Positions 28,808-56,815 of a stretch of DNA of 60,896 bases are shown here, in pieces. The stretch covers positions 1 to 60,896 of the IMG/VR virus record IMGVR_UViG_3300022723_000068, one strand, 5' to 3'. Source of the stretch: a virus. Taxonomy: Duplodnaviria; Caudoviricetes. A program made the translations under genes and the position numbers. Under the pieces are notes generated by a model that ran no database searches, was not told where the DNA came from, and worked only from the letters and a program-made list of their open reading frames with translations. Position 1 is the first letter of the stretch. Every line of letters starts with the position of its first letter.

Positions 28808-29127
28808 TAGTGCACCCCCGCCTGTCCTGGACCGCCGACGCCTCCCGCCGGGACGCCGACCGACCTCACGATCTTCGGCTCTTCCGCGTGCTCTACCTCG
28901 ACCAGGAGGCACACGTCGTGCTCGTTGGTCGTACGGACGTTCTCGACCAGAGCGGCGTACATGTCGTCGCCTACGGCCTCGCGGAAGTCCTCCGCCTTCA
29001 CAGTCTCTTCGTTCTGAAGAAGAACGAGTACGCCGATCAGTGCGATACGTTGAGCGGCGAACTGGTCCATCGGTAGCTGGGCGGCCAGGTTGGTCGCCTG
29101 TCTATACCTAGGCATGATTACTTGCAT
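28807..29127 (-). CDS. Hypothetical protein
   Basis: 106 aa with RBS GAGGAG; stop overlaps the next start. Confidence 0.55.
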   Translation of the reverse strand: MQVIMPRYRQATNLAAQLPMDQFAAQRIALIGVLVLLQNEETVKAEDFREAVGDDMYAALVENVRTTNEHDVCLLVEVEHAEEPKIVRSVGVPAGGVGGPGQAGVH

Positions 29128-29155: not shown

Positions 29156-30421
29156 TTACAGTTCGACGATCTCGAGACCCTTGATCTCGGAGTCGGCTAC
29201 GAAGTTGCGGGCCTGCGACTTCGTCAGCTTGAGCGCGTGCTCGCGGCGGTTGCAGAACACCGGCAGCAGCCGGCCGGCCTTACAGACGCCTGAATCGATC
29301 GCCGTCAGATAGAAAAACGCGCCCTCGTACTCTTGGGCCACGATGCAGTTCTCCCGCCACAGCTTGATCTGGTGAGCTTCGACGACCACCGAAGGGTGCG
29401 CACGGAGAAACTCACGCATCCTACCGTAGCTCAGAACGGCCGCCTTCTCCTGCTCGTCGGCCCAGACCATATCGTCGAGTTTGTCTGACAACGTGTAGCC
29501 AAGCAGATACTGCTGCTGATCTGAGCGATAGATCCAGTAGCAGTCTTCCGTAGGCCCCGAGCCGATCACCGGCCACGGCCGCACGAACCCGCTGCTCTTC
29601 GGCATGGCGGCGACATACTTGTCGGCGTTTTCTTTCGGCATACGCAGGGCCTTATCTGGGTCTCGGGTCCAGGACGAGCCCGTCCCGCCAACCGTCTTCC
29701 CAAACTGGGCCAGGTACTCATCCGCGTTGTTCTGCACCACGTACTCTCGAGCCGTTGAGTAGGGTTGATTGGGTTCTTCAACCGACTTCTCGCCGGTCTC
29801 GAAAGACGGTGGCAGATCCGGATCTTCCACAAGCTTCTTGATGAGCTCGAGCATCTCTTCGTCTACGCTCGACGCCGCGTCTCCATCGATATCGACCTTC
29901 TGGTAGTAGACCTCTTTCTTCCGCACATGTACCTTCCATGGAAGCCCGTCGCCCTTGTGTTCGCGAGCCAGCCACCAGAGCACCTGCCTCGCGTCCGCCT
30001 CGCTATACCAGAAGGGCTCGACCTGCCAGACATTGCCGAACTCGTCTTCGGTGGGGTGGTGCCAGAGACCGCCGAGCTCGACAGCCTTCTCGACTTCGAG
30101 GTCTGCGTGGTCTTTGAGCCAGAAATAGAGCTCCGCCATCTTGTCCCAGATCTCGTGCGCGATGTGGAGCTCGCCCGACTCGTTGTCGTAGAGCCCGTTG
30201 AGATCGCCGGCGTGCTCGGCCTTCTTGCGGTCCATGTAGTGTCGGAAGCCGGCCTCTGCGTAGCGAGCGCCGCCATCCTCCAGGGTCTGGAAGTTCTTCG
30301 GTGCGTACTTGAAGGCGCCGAACGTCCCCACGAACACGGGGTGTTCGAGCGCCGACATGAAGTCCCCGAGCACGAGGTCGGGTCTCGGCTTGTTGCTGTC
30401 GTATTTGATGCCGTTACTCAT
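29156..30421 (-). CDS. DUF5664 (dATP/dGTP diphosphohydrolase-like) domain fused to repeated small domains
   Basis: GIKYDSNKPRPDL, FGAFKY..N, RH and DNESGELHIAH motifs. Confidence 0.75.
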   Translation of the reverse strand: MSNGIKYDSNKPRPDLVLGDFMSALEHPVFVGTFGAFKYAPKNFQTLEDGGARYAEAGFRHYMDRKKAEHAGDLNGLYDNESGELHIAHEIWDKMAELYFWLKDHADLEVEKAVELGGLWHHPTEDEFGNVWQVEPFWYSEADARQVLWWLAREHKGDGLPWKVHVRKKEVYYQKVDIDGDAASSVDEEMLELIKKLVEDPDLPPSFETGEKSVEEPNQPYSTAREYVVQNNADEYLAQFGKTVGGTGSSWTRDPDKALRMPKENADKYVAAMPKSSGFVRPWPVIGSGPTEDCYWIYRSDQQQYLLGYTLSDKLDDMVWADEQEKAAVLSYGRMREFLRAHPSVVVEAHQIKLWRENCIVAQEYEGAFFYLTAIDSGVCKAGRLLPVFCNRREHALKLTKSQARNFVADSEIKGLEIVEL

Positions 30422-30975: not shown

Positions 30976-31193
30976 TCTACGCCGACCGCCAGGGCCGACA
31001 CGGTTACGTTCAGTGCGCGGGCGATCTTGACCAGTCGAAACATCGTCGTGCAGCCTCGGCCCGTCTCTATGTAGGAGATCTGTCTGTTCAACATGTTGAC
31101 CTCCGCCGCTAGCTGGCGCTGGGTCATCCCCGCTTTCTTGCGCCAGTATCTGATGTTCTGGCCGACCTTGTCGGCGATCTCTTGGTCAGCCAC
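30972..31193 (-). CDS. XRE/Cro-CI family HTH regulator
   Basis: IRYWRKKAGMTQRQLA..ISYIETG..IARALNV. Confidence 0.85.
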   Translation of the reverse strand: MADQEIADKVGQNIRYWRKKAGMTQRQLAAEVNMLNRQISYIETGRGCTTMFRLVKIARALNVTVSALAVGVD

Positions 31194-31620
31194 CCCAGCT
31201 CTCCGGCAAGATGCAGACCCCGTCGAGGTGGTCGATCTCGTGCTGCAGGCAGGCCCCCAGAAGATCTCGAGCTCGTCTTATCTTCACTGGTCGCCAGTTG
31301 AGATCGAAGCCCTCGACCGTGACGATCTTGTGGCGCTCTACTACGACTATCTCGCCCGGGAAGGAGAGGCACCCCTCTCTGGACCTGTATATCTGAGAGC
31401 TCCTCTTGGTGATTACGGGGTTGATGATGGCGAACGACCAGCCCAGTTGCTCGCGGCCGCCTACGATGAGCCTTAAGGATTCTCCGACCTGGGGAGCGGC
31501 GAGACCTACGCCGTTCTCGGCCTGCATGGTCTCGAGCATACCGGTCGCCAGCCAGTAGAGATCCTCGCCGCGCTCTACGGGCTCGGCGGATCGGTACAGG
31601 ACGTCGCGCTTGAGTTTCAC
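31186..31620 (-). CDS. def: Peptide deformylase (short form)
   Basis: All three motifs present: GVGLAAPQVG, EGCLS, QHEIDHLDG. Confidence 0.95.
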   Translation of the reverse strand: MKLKRDVLYRSAEPVERGEDLYWLATGMLETMQAENGVGLAAPQVGESLRLIVGGREQLGWSFAIINPVITKRSSQIYRSREGCLSFPGEIVVVERHKIVTVEGFDLNWRPVKIRRARDLLGACLQHEIDHLDGVCILPESWGG

Positions 31621-32585: not shown

Positions 32586-32784
32586 CGCTCTGCCCCTCGC
32601 GGGCGGGCTTCCACTTCCAGTCCGGCTGCCATTCCCACTCGACCAACGGGTCCGATTCGCCTATGAACCATGCCTCAAGGTCGCTATCTTCTACCGCCCT
32701 GATCTCGCATGGCTCGACACGCTCACCTTGGCGCCACCAGTAGTAACCGGGTTCGGTTGGTTTCTCCGCGCTCCAATCAGTCAT
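32578..32784 (-). CDS. Hypothetical Trp-rich protein
   Basis: WS.EKPTEPGYYWW motif seen in phage small proteins. Confidence 0.6.
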   Translation of the reverse strand: MTDWSAEKPTEPGYYWWRQGERVEPCEIRAVEDSDLEAWFIGESDPLVEWEWQPDWKWKPAREGQSDD

Positions 32785-33653
32785 TCGCCCTGCTCACCTT
32801 GAACAGTGAACTGACCAAGTTGCTCAAACGATACCCGGAAACCGGAAGCGTGCTTATGCCCGCCACCGCCGTACTGCTTTGCAATTTCTCCCACGTCAGC
32901 ACCATTATCTCGGCTGCGCAGGCTGAATACCCGCCCTTCTGGCGTATCCCAGTAGCACCCGGCAAACGGGTACTCATCGCCGCAGAGAAGGTGCCCGGCG
33001 TCGCTAGTGAGGGTATACGGAAGGTTCGCCATCGGGACGACGTGGCCCGCGATATTCATGGGCCGAGTAACGACACTGACCAGCTCGGCAATGTCCTTAT
33101 GGTGTTTCCGCTCGATGGCGGAGCCTTCCAACATTAATTCGCTCAATTCCGTGGCATACATTAGCCGTGTCCATACCTCGAAGTCGTAGGGATAGCTGAA
33201 TACCGCAGCCTGAATCTCTCGCGTGTGCGGCAGTTTGAAGCGCCATAGGTCGCGATCCTCGATATGATCGATCAACGGCGGTCGGGCAACGTTGTGGAAA
33301 AAGTCCCACGCAATACCGGCACCGCTGCGCTCCATGTCGAATACGGCGGCGAACGTCAATCCGCTTTCCAGCCAGTCCTCATATGACTCACCAGCCGACG
33401 GTAACCACTCTAGGTCCTCGGCGGCGGTTTTGTGGTGGTCCAGCACTAGCACGGACTTCGCCGTACCTACCATTTCTTCCAGAACTGGCCGCTTGTAGCT
33501 GAAATCAACCAAGATCACGTCCCGGTCGGCTGTGTCGGGCGGCTGGTCCTGATGCACGCCGGCATGGAACTCAATATCGCCAAGCGATTCGCGAACCGCC
33601 CACGCCGCGCCGAAGCCGTCAGCGCAATTCCCGTGATAGATGCAGATGGGCAT
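32781..33653 (-). CDS. DHH/DHHA1 family phosphoesterase
   Basis: YH..C.DG, VDF, LDHH, DRDLW, SLRS and GGGGH..ASG motifs. Confidence 0.9.
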   Translation of the reverse strand: MPICIYHGNCADGFGAAWAVRESLGDIEFHAGVHQDQPPDTADRDVILVDFSYKRPVLEEMVGTAKSVLVLDHHKTAAEDLEWLPSAGESYEDWLESGLTFAAVFDMERSGAGIAWDFFHNVARPPLIDHIEDRDLWRFKLPHTREIQAAVFSYPYDFEVWTRLMYATELSELMLEGSAIERKHHKDIAELVSVVTRPMNIAGHVVPMANLPYTLTSDAGHLLCGDEYPFAGCYWDTPEGRVFSLRSRDNGADVGEIAKQYGGGGHKHASGFRVSFEQLGQFTVQGEQGE

Positions 33654-40571: not shown

Positions 40572-40799
40572 ATGCTCACCGTGAAAATACCCGACCCCGA
40601 GTACGTGTCCGGCAAGTCTGAGATCGAGATCTATGGTAAGACGATCAAGGAGGTGCATACTAACCTTCTGCATCTCTGCCTGATCGAGACCGGCTATTCG
40701 CCCAGCGAGATCGGCTCACGCTACAACGTCTACGAGGACGGCGAGTGCATCGGTGTCTTGACGTGGAACGGTAAGTTCGAAGAGGGTTCAGAGGTCTAA
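40572..40799 (+). CDS. Early hypothetical protein
   Basis: RBS AAAGGAGAA; C-terminal WNGK. Confidence 0.65.
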   Translation: MLTVKIPDPEYVSGKSEIEIYGKTIKEVHTNLLHLCLIETGYSPSEIGSRYNVYEDGECIGVLTWNGKFEEGSEV

Positions 40800-41336
40800 C
40801 AGCCCGTTGTAGAAGTCGATCGCGAAGTCTACGCACGAGAGGTCTACACAGGCTTCTCGTGCGTTCTTTATTCTGTCGGCGGCGTCTATTAAACTCTCGT
40901 TCTTGGAAGATGTCATCCTCACGCGATCGATACTGAGAAAACTCTCGAGCGCCTTCTCGATGCGTCTATTCGCCCAGAATCCTACAGGTAGAAACAACGC
41001 CTTTTCCAACTTAGGCGCGTGGTGCATGAGCTCCATCCACCCTGCGGCGCAACCCTCGGCCGACATCCCCTTGCCTAGCTGACTTAAGAGAACGTCTCTC
41101 GGGTGGCGGACTGGTACGACAACGCGTCTCTGATAGAAGTTCTCGATCATCTTCCAGGGATGCGGACTCTGCCGCCTCGTCCCGTAGATCGTATGGAGTT
41201 GGCCGATGGCTCCGACGTCTCCTCGGATGTCCTCCATCACGGATCTCGGAGAAGAGACTCTGGCGTGCGCCGCGATAGTACGGGTCACATACATCGTCCC
41301 CGAGCCCGGGACCGAGTAGACTATGCACGACTTCAT
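40788..41336 (-). CDS. Sulfotransferase-like (P-loop) protein
   Basis: 5'-PSB-like SVPGSGT and 3'-PB-like VRHPRDVLLS motifs. Confidence 0.6.
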   Translation of the reverse strand: MKSCIVYSVPGSGTMYVTRTIAAHARVSSPRSVMEDIRGDVGAIGQLHTIYGTRRQSPHPWKMIENFYQRRVVVPVRHPRDVLLSQLGKGMSAEGCAAGWMELMHHAPKLEKALFLPVGFWANRRIEKALESFLSIDRVRMTSSKNESLIDAADRIKNAREACVDLSCVDFAIDFYNGLLDL

Positions 41337-44056: not shown

Positions 44057-44442
44057 TTCACTAACTCCTCGTCTTTTAGTCCGTTCGTAAATACTAGCTC
44101 TGCTGCGTCGAACAGCTCCTTGGCGGTCGCCTTATTGAATACCATCGCCGCTACGGCTCCGTCGAACAGCAACCATTGTTCGCGGACCTGTAGCAGCATC
44201 CAGCAGTCGCCGTCTACTCTTCTTCTCTTCACGGCGAAGACTCTTTGCTGCGGTGTGTAGTGATCGATCCTAACGACCGTGTCTTGTCTCGCCGGCCACC
44301 GTCTCAGCCACTTAAGCTCTATCCAACCGTCTGCGTAGTTTATGTCGGGCGTGCCTGGTCCAACGGAGTTTTCTACGGCCACTGCGTGAAGAGGCCGAAG
44401 GGCTTTGACTACCCTCGGCCTCATTGTATCGATCTCAGACAT
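44002..44442 (-). CDS. PD-(D/E)xK nuclease / Holliday junction resolvase
   Basis: VEN..GTPD..WIELK..Q. Confidence 0.8.
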   Translation of the reverse strand: MSEIDTMRPRVVKALRPLHAVAVENSVGPGTPDINYADGWIELKWLRRWPARQDTVVRIDHYTPQQRVFAVKRRRVDGDCWMLLQVREQWLLFDGAVAAMVFNKATAKELFDAAELVFTNGLKDEELVKCVSQGLSTFTFNAAEWV

Positions 44443-45475
44443 TGTAAACCTCTATGTCGTCTCTGTATACATGGACCTCTCTCGGGTCCAGGGTAGCGGG
44501 CTCCCAGGCCCTCTCGATCGCTCTTCTAGCCATGTCACCCATGTACTCGGCGACGGGTGGAAGAACGCCTCTGGCGATCTGGTTGTATCTCTTGCCCGTC
44601 GTGCCGTAGAACCTGTAGCCTTTGGGGAATCCAGACAGGGCGGCCGCCTCACCTACCGACAAGAACCTGTCCTCCTCCGGATGGAGAGTCTTGCAGTCGC
44701 CGGTGAACGTCTGGCAGACAGCGTCCGGGTCCGCCCGACGAAGAAGAAAGCTCCCCCGTCCGCATCTAGGGTGCCCGATCAGCTCAGGGTATTCACGGTC
44801 GAAAGCTTTTCTCACGTACTCGCCCGGCGCCACCTTGTCGACGATCTTGCCCCAGTTAAGATGTGACGGGATGGCGGTCTGGCTAGGATCTGGGTCTTTG
44901 TACAGCGAGCCCAGGACGTCCCCCACCATGGCGGAAGGGCTCTTGGTCGGCTGCCAAGAGATCTCGTATTGAGAGAACACCAGAAAGAAACGCCTACGCG
45001 ATTGAGGAAGACCGTGCTCGGGTCCGTCAGTCAACACGAAGTAGGCGCAGTAGCCCATTGTCTGGGCCTCCATGACGAACTCCATCACGAGACTCTTGCC
45101 CTTGTTGTAGAGACCGCGGACGGACTCTAGCATCCACACGCCCGGCTCGAGCTTACGCAACAGATCAAAACATTCGTGCTGACAGGACAGCCTGGGGTCG
45201 GCGTCCCAGCTATTGGCTCTCCCGGACGACGCCTGCGACCAGGGGGCGCACGGCGGGTTGCAGTAGACGAGATCGATCGGGTATTGATCCTGCGTAAAAC
45301 TCTCTACCGGCCACGGCTTCTGGTGCACGATGACGCCGAGGTTCTTCTCGCTGGTCTCCACACCGAAAGGCCCATCTTCGAAGTGTACACCACACTCGAA
45401 GTGTTCTCCGATACCTAGCGTGAACCCGCCGGCGTAGACGTGAGCTCCTAACGCTCTCAACTTTTGTCTAACCAT
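44435..45475 (-). CDS. C5-cytosine DNA methyltransferase homologue with degenerate SAM-binding motifs
   Basis: Motifs IV NPPC, VI ESV, VIII PQSRRR and IX R.LS..EAA.L.GFP present; motif I reads HVYAGG and motif X reads IARGV. Confidence 0.8.
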   Translation of the reverse strand: MVRQKLRALGAHVYAGGFTLGIGEHFECGVHFEDGPFGVETSEKNLGVIVHQKPWPVESFTQDQYPIDLVYCNPPCAPWSQASSGRANSWDADPRLSCQHECFDLLRKLEPGVWMLESVRGLYNKGKSLVMEFVMEAQTMGYCAYFVLTDGPEHGLPQSRRRFFLVFSQYEISWQPTKSPSAMVGDVLGSLYKDPDPSQTAIPSHLNWGKIVDKVAPGEYVRKAFDREYPELIGHPRCGRGSFLLRRADPDAVCQTFTGDCKTLHPEEDRFLSVGEAAALSGFPKGYRFYGTTGKRYNQIARGVLPPVAEYMGDMARRAIERAWEPATLDPREVHVYRDDIEVYNV

Positions 45476-45914
45476 GTTGGCCTACCTCCTCATACGCGAC
45501 CCCGACCTCTTCGAAGAACATCAAGGCTCGCTCAAACTCCTCGCCCCAGCGCTTGACGAGATCCTCGCTCGGCTTGGGGCACACGACCCTCGCCACGCCC
45601 GCCTGGATCACCATCTTGGCGCACTCGGCACAGGGTGGGATCGTGACGTACAGAGTGTAGCCAACGACGGGTTCGGGCGCAGTAAGAATGGCGTTGAGCT
45701 CGGCGTGCAGCGTCCTCTCATACTTGAGATCTCGATCTTGATAGAGCCAAGGAAGATCCTGAAACCCCTGCGGGAATCCGTTGTAGCCTGTTGAGCAGAT
45801 AGTGTTGTTCTGTCTCGCGACCACGGCGCCTACCTTTGTGCTGGGGTCTCTCGACCAATCGGCGATATGCTCGGCGAGCGCCAAGAAACGCTCGTCCCAC
45901 TTCTCACTCTCCAT
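45468..45914 (-). CDS. dCMP deaminase
   Basis: S.DPSTKVGA, GYNGFP, HAELNA and PCAEC motifs. Confidence 0.92.
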   Translation of the reverse strand: MESEKWDERFLALAEHIADWSRDPSTKVGAVVARQNNTICSTGYNGFPQGFQDLPWLYQDRDLKYERTLHAELNAILTAPEPVVGYTLYVTIPPCAECAKMVIQAGVARVVCPKPSEDLVKRWGEEFERALMFFEEVGVAYEEVGQHG

Positions 45915-46107
45915 GGTGGCTCTCCTTTACTATATGAAACTTCACGACCTTCGACCAAGGGAACCGGCCGGCGGTGGTGATGCAGAATTTACGATTCTTC
46001 TCTTCGAATCTGGTTACGTGGGCTGTGCCGTCTTTCAGAACGACGCGGACCCTCTTACCAGGTCTGCAGCTGTGGTGTCTGGGTCCCTTAGCTAAGGCCA
46101 CTGCCAC
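45904..46107 (-). CDS. Hypothetical basic protein
   Basis: 67 aa overlapping both neighbours. Confidence 0.55.
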   Translation of the reverse strand: MAVALAKGPRHHSCRPGKRVRVVLKDGTAHVTRFEEKNRKFCITTAGRFPWSKVVKFHIVKESHHGE

Positions 46108-46312
46108 CCTCCATGAACCGTCTCCATAGCGGCTCGAACTTGTCGAAGAGATCTTGCGCCCCGCAGGTACACTTCCACGGACGCTTCGACTTGGCCATGC
46201 TCGTGGCCGGACAGTCGCATTGGTGCACGGCCTCAGGGTGCGCGATATACGGTACGCCGGTCGTGTTCAAAAGATCTCGCATGCGATCCAATTCTTCGTC
46301 CGTCACCCACAC
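46088..46312 (-). CDS. Hypothetical protein with H-x-CDC..CTCG motif
   Basis: 74 aa after polA. Confidence 0.5.
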   Translation of the reverse strand: MWVTDEELDRMRDLLNTTGVPYIAHPEAVHQCDCPATSMAKSKRPWKCTCGAQDLFDKFEPLWRRFMEGGSGLS

Positions 46313-48273
46313 TCTCCCCAGTTCGCACCCATCTCAACGTCTACCTTGTGCGGTACGTTGCAGGGAACGGCGTCCCTCATACACTCGCCCAAGGCGAGCG
46401 CCTCTTCTTTGTTCTCGACTGTCTGGCAGAGCTCGTCGTGGACCTGCAGTTGCAGACGGAAGCCCGCCTCGTCGGCGTCCACCATGGCCTGCTTCATTTG
46501 ATCGCCCGAGCTCCCCTGGATGAGTCTGTTGAGCGCCTTGTGGACCCAGTCATAGTTGCCGAAGTCGTCCTGCGGAAAGTGACAGCGCCGTCCGAGCACG
46601 GTCACAACGAAGCCGTTCTTCGTCGCCTGTTTCTTGGCGATCTTGGCGAGCCCTCGCACGTAGGGTGCTCGCTGATCGAACTTATCTAGGAGCGCTTGCG
46701 CTTCTTCGCCCGCGACCTCCCAGATCTTTCCACCTGTGGCGCGTACACGCTCCACGGCCTCCGCCTTGTCGTCGAAGTAGAAGCGGCTTCTCTTCGTAGA
46801 TACAAGCCAGCGCGTGGGCAGATCCAGCTGAACTGCCAGCTTCTTACCGCCCATTCCGTAGCAGAGCCCTAGATAGATCGTCTTCGCAGGCTTTCGCGGG
46901 ATCTCGCAGAGATCCGCCATCATCTGATGGTTGTCGGTGGACGGGTCGTTGCGGTATCTCTCTGCGGCCTCTTTCGCCCGAGGTAGCTTGCAGATCTCGG
47001 CGAAGTGGGTCAGCCATCTAGGCTCCTGCTGCGAGTAGTCGTTGGAGGCCCAATAACCGCCCTCTTCCGGCAGATAGAGGCCCCTGATGAGACCTCCTAT
47101 CTCAGGGTCTCTTCCTGGCGAGGGCTGTTGCTGGAGATTCGGGTCCACGCAGCTTAGACGTCCGTAGGCGGCGCCCTGGGTGTCGTCTGAGCCGTCGTCT
47201 TTCGGTCGTTTCAACTGGTTGAAGGTGGCGTGTATCCTGCCGTCGACCTGGTAGCGCTCGATAGAGGCGATGAACGTCGTGCGGGCCTTGTTGATCTTGC
47301 GAGCCCTCAGCAAGAGCTCACCCACCTCTCCAGCGGACTTCATGACGGCCTCGTTGACGAGAGGGTGGCCGTTCTTGTCTGCTCCTAGGGCAATCCCCTG
47401 TCGCCTGAGAGGCTCAGCCATGGCCTCGGCCGACCAGACGTTGCCTACGCCTACCTGGAATCCCGTACGTTTGTGCACTTCATCTAGTAGGCGGGCCTCT
47501 TCGTCTAGCGTCCACATCTTCGCTCTCTCAAGGCCGTCCATGTCGATACCAACGCCTCGCCTGCGCATCTTGACCAGCACGGGCAGCACTCGAGACTCGA
47601 GATTGTATATCTGCCAGAGATCAGCATCGTCGATGCGCCGTTCTTGTTTCCTTAAGATCTCGAGCGGGAGCACGGCGTCTTCGGTGGCGTAGGGGCCGAC
47701 GTACTTGGAGTGCAGACGCCACATCTCGGATTTGGGGTCGATCCCGTAGGCGTTCGCGGCCTCGCGCAACAGATCCTCGTTCTTTCCAGGGAACCCATAC
47801 CTCTTTGATATTGCGTCGAGTGAATAGCTGTGGTACAGCTCGTTGATGAGAGGGTCGGCGATCTGGATGTCGCGGAAGAATCGAGCGTTGCGAAATACTA
47901 CGCGCTCTTCGGCGAGGTAGTCCGTGTCGTAGGACAGGTTCGCGCCGACGATGTCTCCGTCGAACACTTCGGCCTGATCCTGTAGATACTGAATCACGCG
48001 CTCAGGGTCTAGATTGCCGCCCGCCTCGTGGCGCATGGGCAGATAGAACGAGTCTCCGTCTTCGATGGCGAAGGACACGCCCGTGATATAGCCGCCCCGC
48101 CGCACCGACGGGCCGAGTTCCTTCAGATACGGATCGCGGGTCTCGATGTCCAGCCCGACGCGCTTGGCGCCAGCCCAAGACGGGAGATCATCGAGATTGG
48201 GCGGCGTCCAGTCCGATTCGGGCGCGAACATGATCTGCTGCCCCGGCGCCTTGATCGTTCTACTCCTCGCCAT
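46303..48273 (-). CDS. polA: DNA polymerase family A with 3'-5' exonuclease
   Basis: Exo DIET; GRLS..PNLQQ; motif A DYSQQEPR; motif B R..AKTIYLGLCYG; motif C VHDE. Confidence 0.95.
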   Translation of the reverse strand: MARSRTIKAPGQQIMFAPESDWTPPNLDDLPSWAGAKRVGLDIETRDPYLKELGPSVRRGGYITGVSFAIEDGDSFYLPMRHEAGGNLDPERVIQYLQDQAEVFDGDIVGANLSYDTDYLAEERVVFRNARFFRDIQIADPLINELYHSYSLDAISKRYGFPGKNEDLLREAANAYGIDPKSEMWRLHSKYVGPYATEDAVLPLEILRKQERRIDDADLWQIYNLESRVLPVLVKMRRRGVGIDMDGLERAKMWTLDEEARLLDEVHKRTGFQVGVGNVWSAEAMAEPLRRQGIALGADKNGHPLVNEAVMKSAGEVGELLLRARKINKARTTFIASIERYQVDGRIHATFNQLKRPKDDGSDDTQGAAYGRLSCVDPNLQQQPSPGRDPEIGGLIRGLYLPEEGGYWASNDYSQQEPRWLTHFAEICKLPRAKEAAERYRNDPSTDNHQMMADLCEIPRKPAKTIYLGLCYGMGGKKLAVQLDLPTRWLVSTKRSRFYFDDKAEAVERVRATGGKIWEVAGEEAQALLDKFDQRAPYVRGLAKIAKKQATKNGFVVTVLGRRCHFPQDDFGNYDWVHKALNRLIQGSSGDQMKQAMVDADEAGFRLQLQVHDELCQTVENKEEALALGECMRDAVPCNVPHKVDVEMGANWGECG

Positions 48274-48811
48274 AGTCTCCTCCAAACACGGCCCCGTTAT
48301 GACTAAAGACACGCGTCTCTGCAAACGAGCTGATGAACGCCTCTTCGACCTTTACTCCGAAAGGGTGCAGGGCCGAGCGAGATCCCCTAGTGAGTTCGTT
48401 ACGCATCTCTGTGCCCTCAACCAGACTCTCGAGTATGGTGACGAACTCGCGAGCCATTACCGCTTTCACTGTCCCCTTTTGAGCCATCTCCTCGATGGTG
48501 TCGTCGAAGTCGGTGGTCTCGACCAGCGCTTTCTCGACATCGTCAACTGTGTAGACGACGACCGTGTAGACCGAAACCGAGAACCCGTCCTTCGTGGTCA
48601 ACGTCTGCTCGACTTCCACCGACTGTCTTCTGGTCTCAAGCGTCACGACAGAGGTCGTTATCGGCCAATACCAATAGAGATGTCCAGGGCGGAGCAAGAC
48701 GATCCTGCCTCCCGGCTTGAATTTTACGCCGCCTTCTGTCGGGGTCAACAGTTCCATCTGCGGGAGCAGACTCCACAGGAAGTCGAAGATGTCGTTGAGC
48801 CAGTCGAACAC
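48260..48811 (-). CDS. SPFH / Band 7 domain protein
   Basis: GV.F..G..L.PG..W.WP, QTLTTKDG and FGVKVE motifs. Confidence 0.8.
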   Translation of the reverse strand: MFDWLNDIFDFLWSLLPQMELLTPTEGGVKFKPGGRIVLLRPGHLYWYWPITTSVVTLETRRQSVEVEQTLTTKDGFSVSVYTVVVYTVDDVEKALVETTDFDDTIEEMAQKGTVKAVMAREFVTILESLVEGTEMRNELTRGSRSALHPFGVKVEEAFISSFAETRVFSHNGAVFGGDYGEE

Positions 48812-49206
48812 TACGTCTCTCTAGAGCCTTTCTGAGCCTCGATCCCACCCCAACCACCGCCGACAAGTTCTATGTCGGCGCAGCGAGGGGCTCTGACCCA
48901 GAGAGAATAGGACACGCCCTTGAGAATGCTCTCAAGTCTGTGCGTAAATTCAGGTCGCACCATTCCGAACATGCCTGGTGCCCAGCGTTTGTAGCCGTTC
49001 CAGTCGTCTTCTTCGTAGATCTCCTCTAAGTAGCCGCCCCAGAGAATTATTCTCAAGGCGTACGCAGGGTGCGTGTGAAAGCACTCGTAGGCGTCCGCCT
49101 TAACAAACTTGTGCAGATCTATTCTCCACCCTCTGAAGTGGAACAGGTGCTTGATGTAGAACACAGGTTCTCCCGCGTGGTTCCCGATCCATCTGTCCCA
49201 GTTCAT
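48811..49206 (-). CDS. Cupin-like protein
   Basis: LH.F..D...HTHP..IL.GGY.E..HR. Confidence 0.6.
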   Translation of the reverse strand: MNWDRWIGNHAGEPVFYIKHLFHFRGWRIDLHKFVKADAYECFHTHPAYALRIILWGGYLEEIYEEDDWNGYKRWAPGMFGMVRPEFTHRLESILKGVSYSLWVRAPRCADIELVGGGWGGIEAQKGSRET

Positions 49207-49451
49207 CGTCTCTCCACTCCCATGCACCCTTCCCATGCGCGGTTCGGTGGCCAGTACTCCTCGCGTTCTTGGTCCCACTCATCCTCATTGCGGTCTCTGA
49301 GAAGATGCCCGCAGACTAGCGGACGTTCGACCCAGGTCGGAGACTCAGATTCGCCGATATCTCCGGTCGGTAGACTAGAAGGTTCGAACGCGCACTGCCA
49401 CCCAACAGTCAGAAATATTAAAAACGCGAATAGTTTGAGAACCCGACTCAT
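49203..49451 (-). CDS. Small exported or membrane protein
   Basis: N-terminal hydrophobic segment; ATGA-coupled. Confidence 0.5.
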   Translation of the reverse strand: MSRVLKLFAFLIFLTVGWQCAFEPSSLPTGDIGESESPTWVERPLVCGHLLRDRNEDEWDQEREEYWPPNRAWEGCMGVERR

Positions 49452-49672
49452 CTGTATCTCCCCGTTACATGCAGCCAGTTGAAGAGTCTACGCACAAAGT
49501 AAGACCTTACGACAGACACGGTCGTAAAGAGTATCGTGATGCTAACGTGCGCCCCAATGTCGACATAGATGCCAAAGAGCGGGAAAACAAGCAACTGAGT
49601 ACAGAGCGCCACTGCGAAACCGATGGCGATCGAGAGACAAACCTCTATGAGGCTCACTATCTTGCGTTGCAC
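49448..49672 (-). CDS. Small two-TM protein (S..E...IG...RSY.VRR.FN family)
   Basis: Recognisable motif; GTG start just after the TS stop. Confidence 0.65.
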   Translation of the reverse strand: MQRKIVSLIEVCLSIAIGFAVALCTQLLVFPLFGIYVDIGAHVSITILFTTVSVVRSYFVRRLFNWLHVTGRYR

Positions 49673-49673
49673 G

Positions 49674-50753
49674 TCAGACTTCCTGTACGTCGGCGACTTC
49701 ACTCTGCTTGGCGAGATAGCGCTCTTTGCGTCTTCGTAACCACATCTCGCATAAGGCTCGCCAGTCGTAGGCGCGGACCTCCTGAATGATCTCGAGCGCC
49801 TCGTCGTATCGATCGGCGTTGCCTGACTTGAAGACCTTGTGCGCACGTATCATAGGCAACGCCACACGGCGAAAGAACCAGGACGTATAGCCGAGCGCCT
49901 CGTCCTCCTCGTCCATGAACATCTGCAGATCAGCCTCCCAGCGATCGAGAGGTTCGCCGGCCTGGATGAGATGCGGGGCCGATAGTCTTTCTTGCGCCTC
50001 GTAGGGTGATCTCACGCGCCGCTCCTCATAGTAGGGGGCTGGCGCGTACATTTCGAGTGATCTGATCTTCTCGAGCGTATCGACGTAGGCGTGCCAGTTG
50101 TCGCTGACCTGCCAGTAGCGACCAGGCTCGACCCCAAGGGCGCCGGCCATGTAGGAGAGGAGCATCCCGAAGTGAGGCGCGTCGGCGCCGTAGGTTCCCC
50201 ACACGAGATCGTTCGATCTGTTGAACACCGTCATGTCGAGCATGCCGTAGGGTGACATCTGGAAATGCACGGTCGTGTTGCAGGGCACGTCTTTACCGGG
50301 GAGCACAAGATCGGTCGACGCGTCCCAGATCTGGAGGATCTGCCTACGGCAGTTAGGATTCTCCGCGAGGTTCTTCTGTATCCACGCGAGCTGGTCGAGC
50401 GGGACTCCTCGCGGCGACTGCCATCGTCTGCGCCATCTCTCACCGTAGGCCCCGTGCAGAGTCTCACCGTCGTCGCTGAACTCCCGCATGCGGGCGATGA
50501 AGCGGGCGGGATAGTCGACGTCGTTGCGGCCGGCCAGCATCCATAAGCCCTCAAAAAGAGTCGCGAACGGATTGATGTCGCGCTCCTCCCAGAAGCAGCA
50601 CATCTCGAGCGGCGCCTGGTAGCAGGTCGTCACCGGGTGAGGCGCGACGAGCACCCTCCCCGCTCTGGAATCCGACTCGACGCCGTTGTGCAGGATGTAG
50701 CGTACCGCCATCGGCAGCGCGTCGTGGACGTTCCTTGCGTTTATCACGTGCAT
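49674..50753 (-). CDS. Thymidylate-synthase-family dNMP (hydroxy)methylase, dCMP-type Asp
   Basis: GAYG.RWR, catalytic DVPCN, RSNDLVWGTYGAD and NWHAY motifs; start ATG 50753. Confidence 0.88.
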   Translation of the reverse strand: MHVINARNVHDALPMAVRYILHNGVESDSRAGRVLVAPHPVTTCYQAPLEMCCFWEERDINPFATLFEGLWMLAGRNDVDYPARFIARMREFSDDGETLHGAYGERWRRRWQSPRGVPLDQLAWIQKNLAENPNCRRQILQIWDASTDLVLPGKDVPCNTTVHFQMSPYGMLDMTVFNRSNDLVWGTYGADAPHFGMLLSYMAGALGVEPGRYWQVSDNWHAYVDTLEKIRSLEMYAPAPYYEERRVRSPYEAQERLSAPHLIQAGEPLDRWEADLQMFMDEEDEALGYTSWFFRRVALPMIRAHKVFKSGNADRYDEALEIIQEVRAYDWRALCEMWLRRRKERYLAKQSEVADVQEV

Positions 50754-51006: not shown

Positions 51007-51495
51007 TTACAATCCTACTGCATGAACAGACCTTTGTAGACCGGCTATGAACTCTCCCCACCACTGAGTCGCCTGCACCAGGTTCTCAGGTCGGTTGTAC
51101 CAGTGATTTCGACCAGAGGTGTGGGGGACGCAGACGAAACGGTAGCCGTGGACCCTGTTGACGTTGAGCTCAAAGAACGGTAGCGACTTGTTGCAGTATC
51201 CGAAGGCTCGAGAGACGTTTCGCCCGACGAAGATTATCGTGCGTTCTCTGGCCATCCTTTCGACGACTTGCGCGGCGATCTTCGCCTTTGCGACTGGAAA
51301 CGAGTCTCCGTTCTGAATGGCTCCAGGGAACTTCTGCAATAGGTTTACACGTTCAAACGTCCGTTCGTACTCCTCCAAGGTCAGTCCAGTCATTTGTTGT
51401 AGTCTATGGCCCGCAGAGTTTCGTATTCGAGCACAGAGGGGGCGCATGGGGTCCGTGTCCGGCCCTGGCGCTTGACCTACGAGAAGCGGCTTCAC
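51007..51495 (-). CDS. Uracil-DNA glycosylase superfamily protein
   Basis: LLVGQAPG motif A and PHTSGRN motif B. Confidence 0.75.
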   Translation of the reverse strand: MKPLLVGQAPGPDTDPMRPLCARIRNSAGHRLQQMTGLTLEEYERTFERVNLLQKFPGAIQNGDSFPVAKAKIAAQVVERMARERTIIFVGRNVSRAFGYCNKSLPFFELNVNRVHGYRFVCVPHTSGRNHWYNRPENLVQATQWWGEFIAGLQRSVHAVGL

Positions 51496-53075: not shown

Positions 53076-53894
53076 CTAGAACGGGATATCGTCGTCGCCG
53101 GCCTCTTCTCCGTCGAGCGACTCGTGAGCCGCTCGCGCCTCGCCCGACTTGACCATCTCAGCGACCTGCTTGGCCGACTCCAGGGCGGGAGATCCCGGCT
53201 CGAGGAGTGATTCCTTGATGGTGCCGTTCGCAGGCGACAGAGTGAAGTTGAAGAAGTCACCCTCGGAGTTCGATTCGCCCTTCGTGCCCAGGCGCACAGT
53301 GTGTGCGTAGATGGGCGGACGGATCTTGCGCTCGCCGACCTTCATGGTAAACATGCGAAGACTGGTGTTCCAGCGCTTGTAAACCTTGATCTTGGTCGAC
53401 GTGAAGGCCACGACCGCCATGCCGACAGGCTCGAGATCCTCGTCCACGACGGAGAAGTAGACGTAGAACGTTTCGACAAGATCGTTCTGGCCGCCTCCCT
53501 CGCGCGGGCACTTGAGTCTGCCGAACTCTTCCGAGTTCTCCTTCGCCTCGGTCACGACTTCGGAGTTAATCGGGTGGAGCCCGACGAAGCCTCCGCCTTC
53601 CTTGCGCGGAACCCACTCGACGTAGATGTGCTCGGTGTGAGCGGGGACCAGGATCAGCCCCTCCTTCGGATCGATGAGCTCGTTCGTCACCGTGTTGAAG
53701 AGCATGCCCGGCTTGGCGCCTTCGACTTCGCCCTTCGCCACCTGGGGCGAGAGCCCTTGGAGACAGGAGATAAACGGGATAGCGATGTCGTCGCGGGTCT
53801 GGTTGTCGAAACCGCCGCCAGTGTCTTCACCGTAGTCGTACATCGCGGCAGCCGTGTTCTTCGGCTTTGCGACTTCCTTCTTACTTTCAGCCAT
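53076..53894 (-). CDS. Putative ssDNA-binding protein
   Basis: IPF...LQ.LSPQ, YVEW.PR..GGG; acidic tail DDDIPF; RBS AAGGAGG. Confidence 0.75.
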   Translation of the reverse strand: MAESKKEVAKPKNTAAAMYDYGEDTGGGFDNQTRDDIAIPFISCLQGLSPQVAKGEVEGAKPGMLFNTVTNELIDPKEGLILVPAHTEHIYVEWVPRKEGGGFVGLHPINSEVVTEAKENSEEFGRLKCPREGGGQNDLVETFYVYFSVVDEDLEPVGMAVVAFTSTKIKVYKRWNTSLRMFTMKVGERKIRPPIYAHTVRLGTKGESNSEGDFFNFTLSPANGTIKESLLEPGSPALESAKQVAEMVKSGEARAAHESLDGEEAGDDDIPF

Positions 53895-54009
53895 GGTTAG
53901 GCCTCCTTACTTAATTGCGCGGCCGTATTCATTTAGAGTCCCCGGGCACAGAGTGGGACTGTCGGCCTCTCACCGCGTCACGCCACTAGAGCAGGCGTTC
54001 TCTAATTCG

Positions 54010-54370
54010 GAGGAGAGCCCGACTGAAGTCGGACTCCCACTACGACTTTCTGTTGCCAGGCCGCCGCGGCCCCGCTACTGGCTATGCGGCCAGCGGCAGA
54101 TCGGCTTCATCGAAGCCAAAGTTATCGTCGTTTGCGATTACTTTATTAGTGATTGCGTCACCACTCGAGCTGTCTATCACGCTTCCGCACGCCATGTCGA
54201 ATCCTGTTCAGCCCCGTCAGAAGCGCCCCAAGCATTCCTCAGCGGATTTCAAGGAGGCACCTGCCTTTTGGGTGTCGATCACACACCCTAGAGACGCTTC
54301 TGGTGGAGCTGGCGGGAATCGAACCCGCGTCCACAACGCCTACTAACGCAACTTCATACAGCCATAACTT
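54010..54370 (-). ncRNA. ssrA: Circularly permuted (two-piece) tmRNA
   Basis: Acceptor piece ends GGTTCGATTCCCGCCAGCTCCACCA at 54301; 85-nt spacer; coding piece starts GGGGCTGAACAGGATTCGAC at 54215; tag frame 54135-54082 reads ANDDNFGFDEADLPLAA*. Outer ends approximate. Confidence 0.92.
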
Positions 54371-54379
54371 GCCAACGAA

Positions 54380-54943
54380 CTATTTGATCTTTGCAACTCT
54401 CTGGCGAAAGATCGGAAAGAGATCTTCGGGCAGCTCCTCACCGGCCTCGGTCTTTTCCTTGACGAACTTGACCAGGGTCGGGTTAGCGATCGTCTCCGTG
54501 TCGTCCATCTCGAGATCGGGCATTGCCTCTAGGTTCAGATTCTTGAACCTGTCGGCAAGCTCCTCTTCGCCCATTGCAAACTGCGCGGACAGCTTGCGCT
54601 TGATAAGTTTCTCGTGCCCGTGTTCGCGAAGCCAGGCGAAAGCTGCCGCCCGCTTCGCCGTTGGGATCGAGCAGCGCACGTTCTCCTTGATGTCGATCAC
54701 GAGACCGGCCTTCGTCGTAAACTTCTCCAGCTCGATATCGTCCATGATCTCGGGGATCTCCTTCTCCTCGATCTCTCGCAACCGAGTCTGGGCCTTCGCC
54801 AATTGCGCAGCCAGCTTGGCGACCTCCTCAGTCGCCTCGTGCCAGTTTTCAGCCAGCACGTTAAGCATATCGAGCTTATCGCTCGGGGGCTGATCGTCGT
54901 CGCGATAGTCCGCGTAGGGGTCTTGCTCAGCAGTCATATTCAC
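54380..54943 (-). CDS. Conserved replication-module protein (coiled coil)
   Basis: EIPEIM..F....G and AFAWLRE.GH..LIK motifs typical of genes next to phage SSBs. Confidence 0.7.
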   Translation of the reverse strand: MNMTAEQDPYADYRDDDQPPSDKLDMLNVLAENWHEATEEVAKLAAQLAKAQTRLREIEEKEIPEIMDDIELEKFTTKAGLVIDIKENVRCSIPTAKRAAAFAWLREHGHEKLIKRKLSAQFAMGEEELADRFKNLNLEAMPDLEMDDTETIANPTLVKFVKEKTEAGEELPEDLFPIFRQRVAKIK

Positions 54944-55283
54944 TCTCCAGTTCTAGGTCCGCGCATATAGCGATGTACTCTCGTCTCTTCCCGGACCATT
55001 GAAGACACGAGACTCTGCCCTCCGCCATCTCGGAGGCGATGGCCACAGCCCATCCGATCAGGACAGGGTTGCCGATCAGCAGAAGATAATCTGATTCTGT
55101 AAACGATGCCAGCTTTTCTCTCATCTCCGGGACGATGTTCTCCGGCGCGAAGGGGTTGGCGGTAGGCCCGAGAACAAACTCGAGTTCTCCGAACTTCTCA
55201 GCGGGCGTCAGATCGAACCTGGGCACGAGCTCGTTGAGCTCCTTGTCCAGGCTGTGCTGGTTTTGTACTACGTAGACAGTCAT
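54927..55283 (-). CDS. Conserved hypothetical protein
   Basis: VYVVQ..A..FG..DYLLLIGNP..LQW. Confidence 0.7.
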   Translation of the reverse strand: MTVYVVQNQHSLDKELNELVPRFDLTPAEKFGELEFVLGPTANPFAPENIVPEMREKLASFTESDYLLLIGNPVLIGWAVAIASEMAEGRVSCLQWSGKRREYIAICADLELESEYDC

Positions 55284-56815
55284 ATCCAATCCCTCGTGTC
55301 GTCCCCCGTCACCTGCTCAGAGATCCGCATCTTGCGTCTCAAGTTGGCGATGATCGCCTTGTCGACCGGCCCTCCGATGAGATCGATGTACAGCGCGTCG
55401 TGCTTGAGCCCCGCCCTGTGCACGCGGTCCTCGGACTGCACACGGTCGACGTAGTTGAATGAATTGTTGTAGTAGTAGGAGGCCTCGGCCTCCGTGTAGG
55501 TGTGCCCCTTGGACATGGCCGCTTGGTTGGCGACGATCCACTGGACCTTGCGGTCGTTCTTGAAGCGGTGCTTGTTCTCCGCCTTTTGGTCGGACGAGAT
55601 CGTGCCGTCGTAGCGCACTGCGCTCTTACCGAGAGCTCGACAGATCAGATCGACGTCCATGATGAAGTTGGTCCATACAATCGCCTTGCCAGACTGCCGA
55701 GACGCCTCCTCCACCATGAGATCGAGCCTCGGGTTGGTCTTGCCCAGAAGAGAGACAGGTTCGCCGTCGTCTGTGGGGACATAGCCCGACAGGATCTGCC
55801 GGCATCTCAGCAATTGGACGATCGGCAAGGCCGCCGTCACGAGACCGCCGTCCTCTAAGAAGGTCATGCACTCCTCTTCGATCTCTTGATAGGCCTTCCG
55901 TTGCTGCGGGTTCATCTCGAAGTATCGCTTGCTGAAGAGCTTCGGCGGGAGATCGAGTACGTCTTTCTTGAGTACTCTCGAGCGATGCGGTTCGAGGATT
56001 TCACGAAGCTCGTCCAGCCTTCGAAAGCCAACCAGGTCGCCCAGATCCCAGGCCGGCCCCTCTTCAGACGTCTTCCCTCCCTTGCGCTTGCCAACTCGCC
56101 ACACACCGAAGTGCACCTTGAACTCGGTCAAAGTCCCGAAGCCGTTCTTCTTCCAGAACCCTGGATCTAGAAACTGCATCTGCTTATAGACGTCGAACGG
56201 CCCCGTCGCGATCGGCGTGCCGTTCAGTATTCTCGTGTACGCGGCGTAGACGCCCGAGGGCACGATCGACTTAGTGACGGTCGCCCCCGGTGACTTAATG
56301 GCGATCGACTCGTCGAGAACATAGAGGACGCGACGGAACTTGAGAATTCGCTTCATGTAGTTCTTGCCGCCCATCCACTTGTGCGTGCCAGAATTACGCC
56401 CCGTCTTCACCGGACCCGTCATGAACGCGTCGTAGGACATCGTCAGCCACAGAAGCTTGTCTGTGGCCTTGAGAGCCCGCATCGCGCGACGTTCGTGCTC
56501 GAGATTCTGGTGCTTGCTCGAGTCGTACATGAAGCGGATGGAGCTCTCTTGGATCGACTCCGGTATGTGGATCGGGATCTCGTCGTCGTTCCAGTTGCGA
56601 TGCACGCCGTTGGGCGCGACCACGACCACGCAGTCTATGAGCCCCCGACACCACAACCAGGCCGCCGTGTCGATGATGAGCTTCGTCTTCCCCGTGCCCT
56701 GCTCCCACCATACGGCGTATGCCGGGCGCTCACGGGTCTTCTCCCACACCTCCGCCTGGTGGGCGAAGGGCGGGAGTCTAAAGTCGAATTCGTCGGATGT
56801 GATTATCTGCGCCAT
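55280..56815 (-). CDS. SF2 (SNF2-like) helicase
   Basis: EQGTGKT, LDES, LNGTP and QSEDRVHR.G motifs. Confidence 0.9.
   Translation of the reverse strand: MAQIITSDEFDFRLPPFAHQAEVWEKTRERPAYAVWWEQGTGKTKLIIDTAAWLWCRGLIDCVVVVAPNGVHRNWNDDEIPIHIPESIQESSIRFMYDSSKHQNLEHERRAMRALKATDKLLWLTMSYDAFMTGPVKTGRNSGTHKWMGGKNYMKRILKFRRVLYVLDESIAIKSPGATVTKSIVPSGVYAAYTRILNGTPIATGPFDVYKQMQFLDPGFWKKNGFGTLTEFKVHFGVWRVGKRKGGKTSEEGPAWDLGDLVGFRRLDELREILEPHRSRVLKKDVLDLPPKLFSKRYFEMNPQQRKAYQEIEEECMTFLEDGGLVTAALPIVQLLRCRQILSGYVPTDDGEPVSLLGKTNPRLDLMVEEASRQSGKAIVWTNFIMDVDLICRALGKSAVRYDGTISSDQKAENKHRFKNDRKVQWIVANQAAMSKGHTYTEAEASYYYNNSFNYVDRVQSEDRVHRAGLKHDALYIDLIGGPVDKAIIANLRRKMRISEQVTGDDTRDWI

Follow-up and report, generated by a model that had tools for sequence, protein, structure and literature searches.

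Can phages of a lineage in which only thymidine hypermodification is known have turned their replication operon to cytosine? The question is raised by IMGVR_UViG_3300022723_000068, a phage record that is complete at 60,896 bases and was analysed here at its full length (the window). Nearly all genes are encoded on the minus strand, and one compact operon for replication and nucleotide metabolism runs from 53.9 kb to 40.8 kb. It holds a homologue of thymidylate synthase (TS) and a homologue of DNA cytosine-C5 methyltransferases (MTases), listed below with their family matches (E-values). The explanation to which we give about even credence is that this YuA/M6-like phage has a deoxycytidylate (dCMP) hydroxymethylase together with an MTase-fold enzyme that would tailor 5-hydroxymethylcytosine (5hmC) in DNA by means of a changed co-substrate.

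49674-50753, minus strand: TS-family enzyme, predicted dCMP hydroxymethylase (5-hydroxymethyl-dCMP synthase); PF00303 5.1e-20, phrog_5131 1.2e-113
44435-45475, minus strand: protein with the C5-cytosine-methyltransferase fold; PF00145 8.5e-24, 85 bits against a cut-off of 22

Base specificity of the TS homologue

An Asp of the TS homologue aligned with Asn177 of Escherichia coli ThyA, both in a HMMER comparison with solved TS enzymes and in a MAFFT alignment, which bears out the reading made earlier from the sequence alone (the sequence-only reading) of an Asp at the base-specificity position, as in T4 gp42. At ThyA positions 143, 146, 169 and 177 the window enzyme has D/C/D/D, the same as gp42, whereas the enzyme of Pseudomonas phage LKO4 has D/C/D/N. 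The catalytic Cys146 lies in the motif KDVPC, which also contains Asp143, and Asp169 is kept in RSNDLVW. In the MAFFT alignment position 177 is Asn in LKO4, Bordetella phage FP1, CampHawk and heyday and Asp in gp42 and the window; a related locus, L006, also has Asn. Excerpts of PMC13326640, a paper of 2026, report that N177D, an established determinant, gives dCMP specificity, that an acidic residue in place of Leu143 (L143D/E) leads to a hydroxymethyl rather than a methyl product, and that D169N marks 5-hydroxy-dCMP synthases of the RB69 gp48 type. With residues 143, 146, 169 and 177 all as in gp42, the TS homologue reads as a dCMP hydroxymethylase, a 5-hydroxy-dCMP synthase having a different signature, and from these residues we consider that function quite probable. 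The 5-hydroxy-dCMP synthase assignment was rejected: N177D and the acidic residue 143 are common to the window enzyme and to the synthases of RB69 and DLP3 as excerpted in PMC13326640, but their D169N is absent and Asp169 is kept.

The TS homologue is only 21% identical to gp42 and falls in the YuA-like clade of the TS tree. Among 50,697 GenBank phage records, 746 contained any homologue of it; the nearest came from YuA/M6-like Pseudomonas and Bordetella phages (45-48% identity), followed by SPO1-like and ViI-like phages at ~30%. All of these groups are producers of 5-hydroxymethyl-dU. In phages of the M6/YuA type, excerpts of PMC5889632 (Lee et al. 2018) associate the deoxyuridylate (dUMP) hydroxymethyltransferase with genes for a 5-hydroxymethyluracil DNA kinase (5-HMUDK) and for pyridoxal phosphate (PLP) and radical-SAM enzymes; they place LKO4 among the 5-HMUDK phages and predict 5-(2-aminoethyl)-2'-deoxyuridine (5-NedU) for it. 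The window has in common with LKO4 and FP1 the gene order TS, PolA, dCMP deaminase, phrog_2165 protein, repressor and primase, and 7 of 19 LKO4 proteins from the replication region have clear homologues in it by phmmer. Beyond the residue at position 177, two differences stand out. In the window an MTase-like gene follows the deaminase gene as an insertion, and the genes for thymidine hypermodification are missing. None of the eight proteins of the LKO4 cluster (LKO4_008 to 0015) found a homologue there by phmmer at E <= 0.01, in agreement with the sequence-only reading, which had recognised no such genes, and neither did the LKO4 HD phosphohydrolase.

The full dCMP-hydroxymethylase signature in this enzyme therefore points to a thymidine-modifier lineage that switched to cytosine. 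What is new in the window is the Asn-to-Asp switch within that lineage and a minimal module that has no glycosyltransferase (GT) or recognisable kinase. If the assignment is true, a lineage known only for thymidine hypermodification would have moved to cytosine through the switch of a single specificity residue.

The MTase-fold family and its linkage to Asp-type TS genes

The MTase homologue has the motifs NPPC, ESV and QsRrR, and reads HVYAGGF at motif I and QIARGV at motif X. It thus keeps Cys76, Glu117, Arg160 and Arg162, while Tyr14 replaces the first Gly of motif I and Arg302 replaces the Asn of motif X. Motif I (F-x-G-x-G) and the Gly-Asn of motif X line the pocket for S-adenosylmethionine (AdoMet or SAM) in C5-MTases. 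To place these changes we aligned 375 distinct sequences to a family profile, the register of which was checked against M.HaeIII (profile), SpCmoX and a canonical phage Dcm. Cys76 was present in 374 sequences, and Glu117, Arg160 and Arg162 in all 375; the NPPC motif starting at Asn73 was found in 373. Position 14 was Phe in 315 sequences, Tyr in 56 and Gly in none, and position 302, the site of Asn304 in M.HhaI, was Arg in 231, Lys in 78, Gln in 57 and Asn in none. A Trp-Pro pair stands in place of the motif III region (Trp in 369 of 375, Pro in 332 of 375). The ribose-binding Glu of motif II was kept in 365 sequences and the Phe position of motif I is mostly aromatic (Tyr in 273, His in 52).

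Canonical C5-MTases such as M.HhaI and M.HaeIII share with this family the fold, the motif IV Cys, the motif VI Glu and the Arg-x-Arg of motif VIII. They differ from it in the motif I Gly (Phe or Tyr in the family), the Asp-Ile region of motif III (Trp-Pro), the motif X Asn (Arg, Lys or Gln) and the motif ENV (ESV). Because the pattern is conserved across 375 sequences, an intact chemistry combined with a non-canonical pocket is a trait of the family and not decay of one gene, and the invariant Cys argues for covalent chemistry at C6. The sequence-only reading had described catalytic Cys, Glu and Arg as intact and the SAM motifs as broken. The catalytic residues and the altered motifs I and X stand; the label "SAM-less" goes beyond the data, since 365 of the 375 sequences retain the Glu of motif II and Arg302 corresponds to Arg350 of the phage enzyme CmoX.

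The AlphaFold model of the MTase homologue (predicted local distance difference test, pLDDT, 94.2) matched the DNA C5-MTase fold in Foldseek. The match was to the generic fold, in which CmoX and canonical enzymes were not separated (CmoX structure 8yf3 at rank 10); the family profile matches 8yf3 at E 2.8e-25. A word-indexed search of large protein collections gave 119 relatives at E <= 0.001, the closest of them 73% identical (54-73% for P0003 to P0008, the nearest homologues), and at least 296 family clusters were found among 50%-identity representatives at E <= 1e-30. Family members were found here solely in viral and metagenomic sequence. The 50,697 GenBank phage records contained no close member, the best of 22 matches being 26.5% identical, with the reservation that records close to the window may be absent from that set. 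Exact-peptide searches of IMG/VR with single proteins returned no MTase-like relative and one TS relative, and alignment-based patterns were needed instead. A full-text literature search, which did not cover the computational survey by Aravind and coworkers, returned no description of the MTase-like family or of its link to dCMP hydroxymethylases; its matches were T4 dCMP hydroxymethylase, 5hmC phages that depend on TET enzymes, 5-hydroxycytosine (5hoC) and CmoX.

We then asked if the MTase-like gene occurs together with an Asp-type TS, as the sequence-only reading had proposed to check in related genomes. Family patterns of the MTase-like protein were used to fetch 160 loci, 80 from IMG/VR and 80 from metagenomes, with some contigs present twice. 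In 100 loci the sequence downstream of the gene extends for 4 kb or more, and 97 of them contain a TS-family gene (the exceptions are L017, L054 and L116), as do 78 of the 79 loci with 4 kb on both flanks; the other 45 loci without TS break off within 4 kb downstream. Each of the 112 TS genes has the same orientation as the MTase-like gene of its locus, and the median distance is 1985 bp. The signature D/E-C-D-D was present in 109 of the 112, and the remaining three (L028, L125 and L134) are truncated or unaligned, so that 109 of 109 scorable genes are of the Asp type. Collapsing the MTase-like proteins at 90% identity left 36 informative clusters, 34 of which keep the TS, and at 50% it left 25, of which 24 keep it. 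The Asp-type partners fall into three separate clades of the TS tree: a YuA-like/ViI/SPO1 clade (window, L016 and L088), a large marine and soil clade, and a gp42-like clade. Gene order can also be retained; in L087, a locus of 4.6 kb whose protein is 58% identical to the MTase homologue, deaminase, MTase-like and phrog_2165 genes follow one another as in the window. The module is a widespread viral family and not special to the window phage.

In the opposite direction the measurement was confined to the YuA-like clade: IMG/VR gave at least 591 matches to the TS, and the 80 best were taken. Of the 80, 77 were of the Asn type, and all 77 loci lack the MTase-like gene; nor is there a copy in the complete contig from which the Asn-type locus L006 comes. 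The other three were L177, which is on the same contig as L016 and has both Asp and the gene, L241, which has Asp and lacks the gene, and L172, which was unreadable. Seen from the MTase-like gene, the association is thus very strong; seen from the TS, it is not obligatory.

L241 is itself a complete IMG/VR contig of 58,821 bp, and the YuA-like phage that it represents has a TS of the Asp type (RSNDVVWGCYGSD). In the 10 kb fetched on each side we found no dCMP deaminase and no thymidine-hypermodification cluster. This relative of the window phage may be one with plain 5hmC.

Neighbours and fusions in other loci indicate the setting in which the family occurs. Marine loci of low G+C content have the order UvrD helicase, MTase-like, MazG, a 348-aa protein, deoxynucleoside monophosphate (dNMP) kinase, Asp-type TS, dCMP deaminase and PolA. 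The model of the 348-aa protein (pLDDT 85.1) had T4 beta-glucosyltransferase (BGT) as its top Foldseek matches (1qkj, E 1.9e-6). Six proteins are fusions of an MTase-like domain with a BGT-like GT (P0244, L065, P0173, P0178, P0168 and P0227), one of which, P0178, also carries a fused uracil-DNA glycosylase (UDG) domain, the only such case. Two more are fused to MazG (P0203 and P0219), one to a complete PolA with exonuclease and polymerase (P0182) and one to a class I methyltransferase domain (P0121). In 35 representative loci, hidden Markov models (HMMs) of MazG and of the kinase matched in most and the GT in a subset; by the same HMMs the window and L016 lack MazG, kinase and GT of the marine type. 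A complete T4-style module for glycosylated 5hmC (MazG, BGT-like GT and kinase) in the marine loci strengthens the assignment of the Asp-type TS. No TET- or JBP-type family was present among the 25 commonest of 46 Pfam families in 136 neighbour proteins from 24 loci.

The same 24 diverse loci contained one neighbour with the helical domain of 5-hydroxymethyl-dU DNA kinases (PF18723, 4.3e-23) and two with Methyltransf_23; because of the former, some modules of the 5hmC type may also hold activation genes of the kinase type.

Compared with known systems, the window resembles the T4 5hmC pathway set in a YuA-like siphophage backbone, plus a partner that has no counterpart in described pathways. 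The T-even route comprises gp42, the dCTPase gp56, the dNMP kinase gp1, the Cd deaminase and alpha- and beta-glucosyltransferases. The TS signature is identical, the window has a dCMP deaminase and a MazG-like pyrophosphatase, and in related loci these are joined by a dNMP kinase and a T4-BGT-like transferase. In contrast to the T-even phages, the window has a TS of the YuA-like clade and no dNMP kinase or GT that we could find, and T4 has no partner with the C5-MTase fold.

Proposed pathway and competing explanations

Three further genes of the window enter the pathway that we propose.

45468-45914, minus strand: dCMP deaminase; PF00383 5.4e-22, homologue of the LKO4 deoxycytidylate deaminase 1e-39
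46303-48324, minus strand: family A DNA polymerase (PolA), same operon; PF00476 1.3e-44, LKO4 polymerase 1.8e-222
28256-28912, minus strand: MazG-like nucleoside triphosphate pyrophosphohydrolase, candidate dCTPase; PF03819 5.4e-08, 33.4 bits against a cut-off of 22; phrog_229 4.8e-20

The family match confirms the deaminase that the sequence-only reading had placed in the operon; its gene and the start of the MTase-like gene overlap by 8 bases. The MazG-like gene was absent from that reading.

In the proposed pathway a phage with a YuA/M6-like replication operon would have lost the thymidine-hypermodification cluster, and its TS-family enzyme would have turned into a dCMP hydroxymethylase. 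The TS homologue would convert dCMP to 5-hydroxymethyl-dCMP, which would be phosphorylated by a kinase and incorporated by the phage PolA; the deaminase would feed dUMP to the host ThyA, and the MazG-like enzyme may deplete dCTP. The MTase-fold protein would flip (hydroxymethyl)cytosine out of the phage DNA, its invariant Cys would attack C6, and the 5-substituent would then be exchanged or extended with a co-substrate bound in the rebuilt pocket (Phe or Tyr for Gly; Arg, Lys or Gln for Asn). Residue signatures, fold, family conservation, gene linkage and fusions are observations; from them we infer 5hmC in virion DNA, the post-replicative action of the MTase-fold enzyme and its substrate and product.

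A C5-methylase is least useful on DNA that is already substituted at C5, yet the family occurs almost only next to dCMP hydroxymethylases and is fused to GTs for 5hmC; on the simplest reading, 5hmC DNA is its substrate or its working context. That the MTase-like protein works in the 5hmC pathway is therefore very likely; that it derivatises 5hmC specifically, rather than residual cytosine, is possible, on the doubtful side. Excerpts of PMC7176277 and PMC11347137 describe several reactions of C5-MTases: coupling of thiols to 5hmC, addition of formaldehyde to cytosine, formation of covalent complexes with 5hmC DNA and removal of the hydroxymethyl group. The family may tentatively be pictured as a natural DNA 5hmC transferase, in which Cys would add to C6, water would leave, and a co-substrate bound in the rebuilt and positively charged former SAM pocket would add to the exocyclic methylene. 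As part of the same tentative picture, its product would be a hitherto undescribed cytosine hypermodification that the YuA-like window phage would have in common with many viruses from ocean and soil. The 5hmC transferase or editor that the sequence-only reading had suggested is thus one hypothesis among several. If true, a large uncharacterised family would provide a new tailoring step for 5hmC DNA, a new base or enzymatic route in phage anti-restriction and a natural counterpart to the laboratory labelling of 5hmC by C5-methyltransferases.

Several points weigh against such a 5hmC-tailoring pathway. All 160 loci were retrieved via the MTase-like gene and measure only the probability of an Asp-type TS given that gene. 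T4 and the complete contig behind L241 have an Asp-type TS and no MTase-like gene, so the pair is not obligatory and the MTase-like gene is an add-on. No dNMP kinase was recognised in the window, a weak negative as far as the HMM is concerned, and the supply of 5-hydroxymethyl-dCTP therefore rests on a host enzyme or on one that escaped recognition. The weakness is general: the marine BGT-like, MazG and dNMP-kinase HMMs had no window match at E <= 10, and the MazG HMM missed the MazG domain that Pfam found at 28256-28912, so that these HMM negatives, the kinase one included, are weak. In the MTase homologue, the conserved Glu and Arg residues imply that the cytosine ring is bound and nothing more, and covalent catalysis is backed by the Cys alone. 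Because the Glu of motif II is kept and most sequences are aromatic at the Phe site of motif I, an adenosyl cofactor may still bind. Judged from these residues, such a cofactor would suit transfer onto an unmodified C5 as well as 5hmC chemistry, and the ribose-binding Glu counts against a cofactor-free mechanism. Arg302 of the window, finally, aligns with Arg350 of CmoX.

This last alignment introduces the alternative that survives best. CmoX of Synechococcus phage S-B43 (PDB 8YF3) is, in excerpts of PMC12783734, a phage DNA cytosine C5-carboxymethyltransferase with a changed cofactor. The MTase-like protein could be an alkyltransferase of this type that would use carboxy-S-adenosylmethionine (Cx-SAM) made by the host CmoA, or another extended SAM analogue, and act on C5 of unmodified cytosine or on the hydroxyl of 5hmC. 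The same excerpts report that Arg350 binds the carboxymethyl group of Cx-SAM and mirrors the engineered N374K of M.MpeI. Arg or Lys occupies position 302 in 309 of the 375 family members, and the window and CmoX have in common the C5-MTase homology, Arg at the M.HhaI Asn304 site and PPC followed by a small residue (NPPCA resembles SPPCS). The retained motif II Glu and the profile match to 8yf3 also favour it. We nevertheless regard it as unlikely. The CmoA/CmoX/CmoY system was considered and failed the neighbourhood test, as no CmoA or CmoY homologue was present in the 160 loci or the window (phmmer with SpCmoA, thresholds of E <= 1e-3 for the loci and E <= 10 for the window), whereas excerpts of PMC12783734 count 4257 CmoA sequences in the contigs of 5615 CmoX candidates. 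They also use the SPPC motif to define CmoX, and the family has NPPC in 373 of 375 sequences. Further differences are the altered motif I, Gln at position 302 in 57 of 375 sequences, the dCMP hydroxymethylase as partner, an identity to SpCmoX of ~20% and the low rank of 8yf3 in the fold search. If cytosine were fully replaced by 5hmC, C5 would not be free.

Quite unlikely is a fill-in enzyme, which would convert residual cytosine in new phage DNA to 5hmC with a one-carbon donor other than SAM, or to 5-methylcytosine. It would complete the replacement and would matter most where the exclusion of dCTP is leaky. Excerpts of PMC7176277 describe hydroxymethylation of target cytosines by M.HhaI as an "atypical reactivity", the PolA fusion in one family member would suit work at the replication fork, and a fused BGT-like GT would allow freshly made 5hmC to be glycosylated. 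The motifs conserved across the family between motifs VIII and IX, moreover, suggest little sequence specificity. However, MazG, kinase and Asp-type TS are already present in most loci, and with them replacement should be nearly complete, as it is in T4. We identified no feature of a folate-type or aldehyde-binding kind, and the motif II Glu points to an adenosyl ligand.

We consider it very unlikely that the TS homologue still makes 5-hydroxymethyl-dUMP or dTMP despite its Asp, in which case the phage DNA would have no modified cytosine. Its nearest relatives are dUMP hydroxymethyltransferases, the dUMP-supplying dCMP deaminase is kept and the window has no recognised dNMP kinase. T4 also keeps a dCMP deaminase, which takes weight from the second of these points. 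Asp177 is the established dCMP determinant (PMC13326640, in excerpt), all eight downstream LKO4 genes for thymidine hypermodification are absent, and elsewhere the same signature occurs in T4-style modules with MazG, kinase and BGT-like genes.

Most improbable is that the MTase-like protein would be a SAM-dependent C5-methyltransferase of the ordinary kind, divergent in its pocket, which would serve anti-restriction or regulation and merely travel with the operon: the PF00145 score, the DNA C5-MTase fold, the motif II Glu and the catalytic residues would suit it, but none of the 375 sequences has the first Gly of motif I or the Asn of motif X, the NCBIfam dcm model (TIGR00675) scores 63.1 against a cut-off of 100.65, GenBank phages have no close member, and the gene occurs almost only beside dCMP hydroxymethylases of three TS clades, where a C5-methylase would be least useful.

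Other genes of the window

In its first part the operon encodes a Pam3_gp34-like protein, a RecD/PIF1-like helicase, a UDG-like protein, the TS homologue, a DUF7220 protein, a 155-aa protein, an SPFH/Band7 protein and PolA. Its second part encodes two small open reading frames (ORFs), the dCMP deaminase, the MTase homologue, the phrog_2165 protein, a helix-turn-helix repressor, a primase and a 182-aa protein. The sequence-only reading had drawn three of these into the cytosine pathway or its flanks.

51007-51495, minus strand: UDG-like protein; phrog_12275 4.3e-44, LKO4_007.2 "uracil-DNA glycosylase" 3e-42 by phmmer, no Pfam match
48811-49278, minus strand: 155-aa "cupin"; weak, only phrog_4786 "cysteine dioxygenase" 8e-13, no Pfam or NCBIfam match
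40788-41336, minus strand: 182-aa sulfotransferase-fold-like protein at the operon end; ESM Atlas sulfotransferase clusters, features 0.96, structure template-modelling (TM) score 0.72 by query

The UDG-like gene is homologous to its LKO4 counterpart; as it is common to YuA-like phages of the Asn type, it is not specific to a cytosine pathway. The cupin is present only in the sense of its one weak match, and the likeness of the 182-aa protein to sulfotransferases, which has no match in Pfam, PHROG or NCBIfam behind it, is a lead only; a link of this protein to the cytosine pathway is speculative. An NCBIfam scan of the 155-, 162- and 182-aa proteins of the window gave no match. The cupin, the 182-aa protein, the Band7 protein and the small ORFs had no homologues in the 160 MTase-like loci, and the first two are therefore not conserved parts of the pathway. 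The absence of a GT, also stated in the sequence-only reading, agrees with our scans, in which no GT Pfam family was found among 73 window ORFs and the HMM of the BGT-like family had no match.

Beside the MazG gene lies a second nucleotide pyrophosphatase-like gene, likewise missing from the sequence-only reading. It encodes a 421-aa protein (29156-30421, minus strand) in which the first 100 residues match the N-domain of dATP/dGTP diphosphohydrolases (PF18909, 1.1e-14) and the remaining ~300 residues match no family. At higher coordinates are a phage peptide deformylase (31186-31620, minus strand; PF01327, 8e-36) and a DHH-family phosphoesterase (32781-33653, minus strand; phrog_4771, 9e-101). 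ARAGORN identified a permuted transfer-messenger RNA (tmRNA) at 53991-54393 on the minus strand with the tag peptide ANDDNFGFDEADLPLAA, in agreement with an earlier two-piece reading of this tmRNA. Homologues of the Pam3_gp34-like protein (53076-53894, minus strand) were found in 90 of the 160 MTase-like loci and those of a Pam3_gp32-like protein (54927-55289, minus strand) in 74; the gp34-like match in L012 adjoins the primase gene, directly upstream of it. Both appear to be conserved proteins of the replication module.

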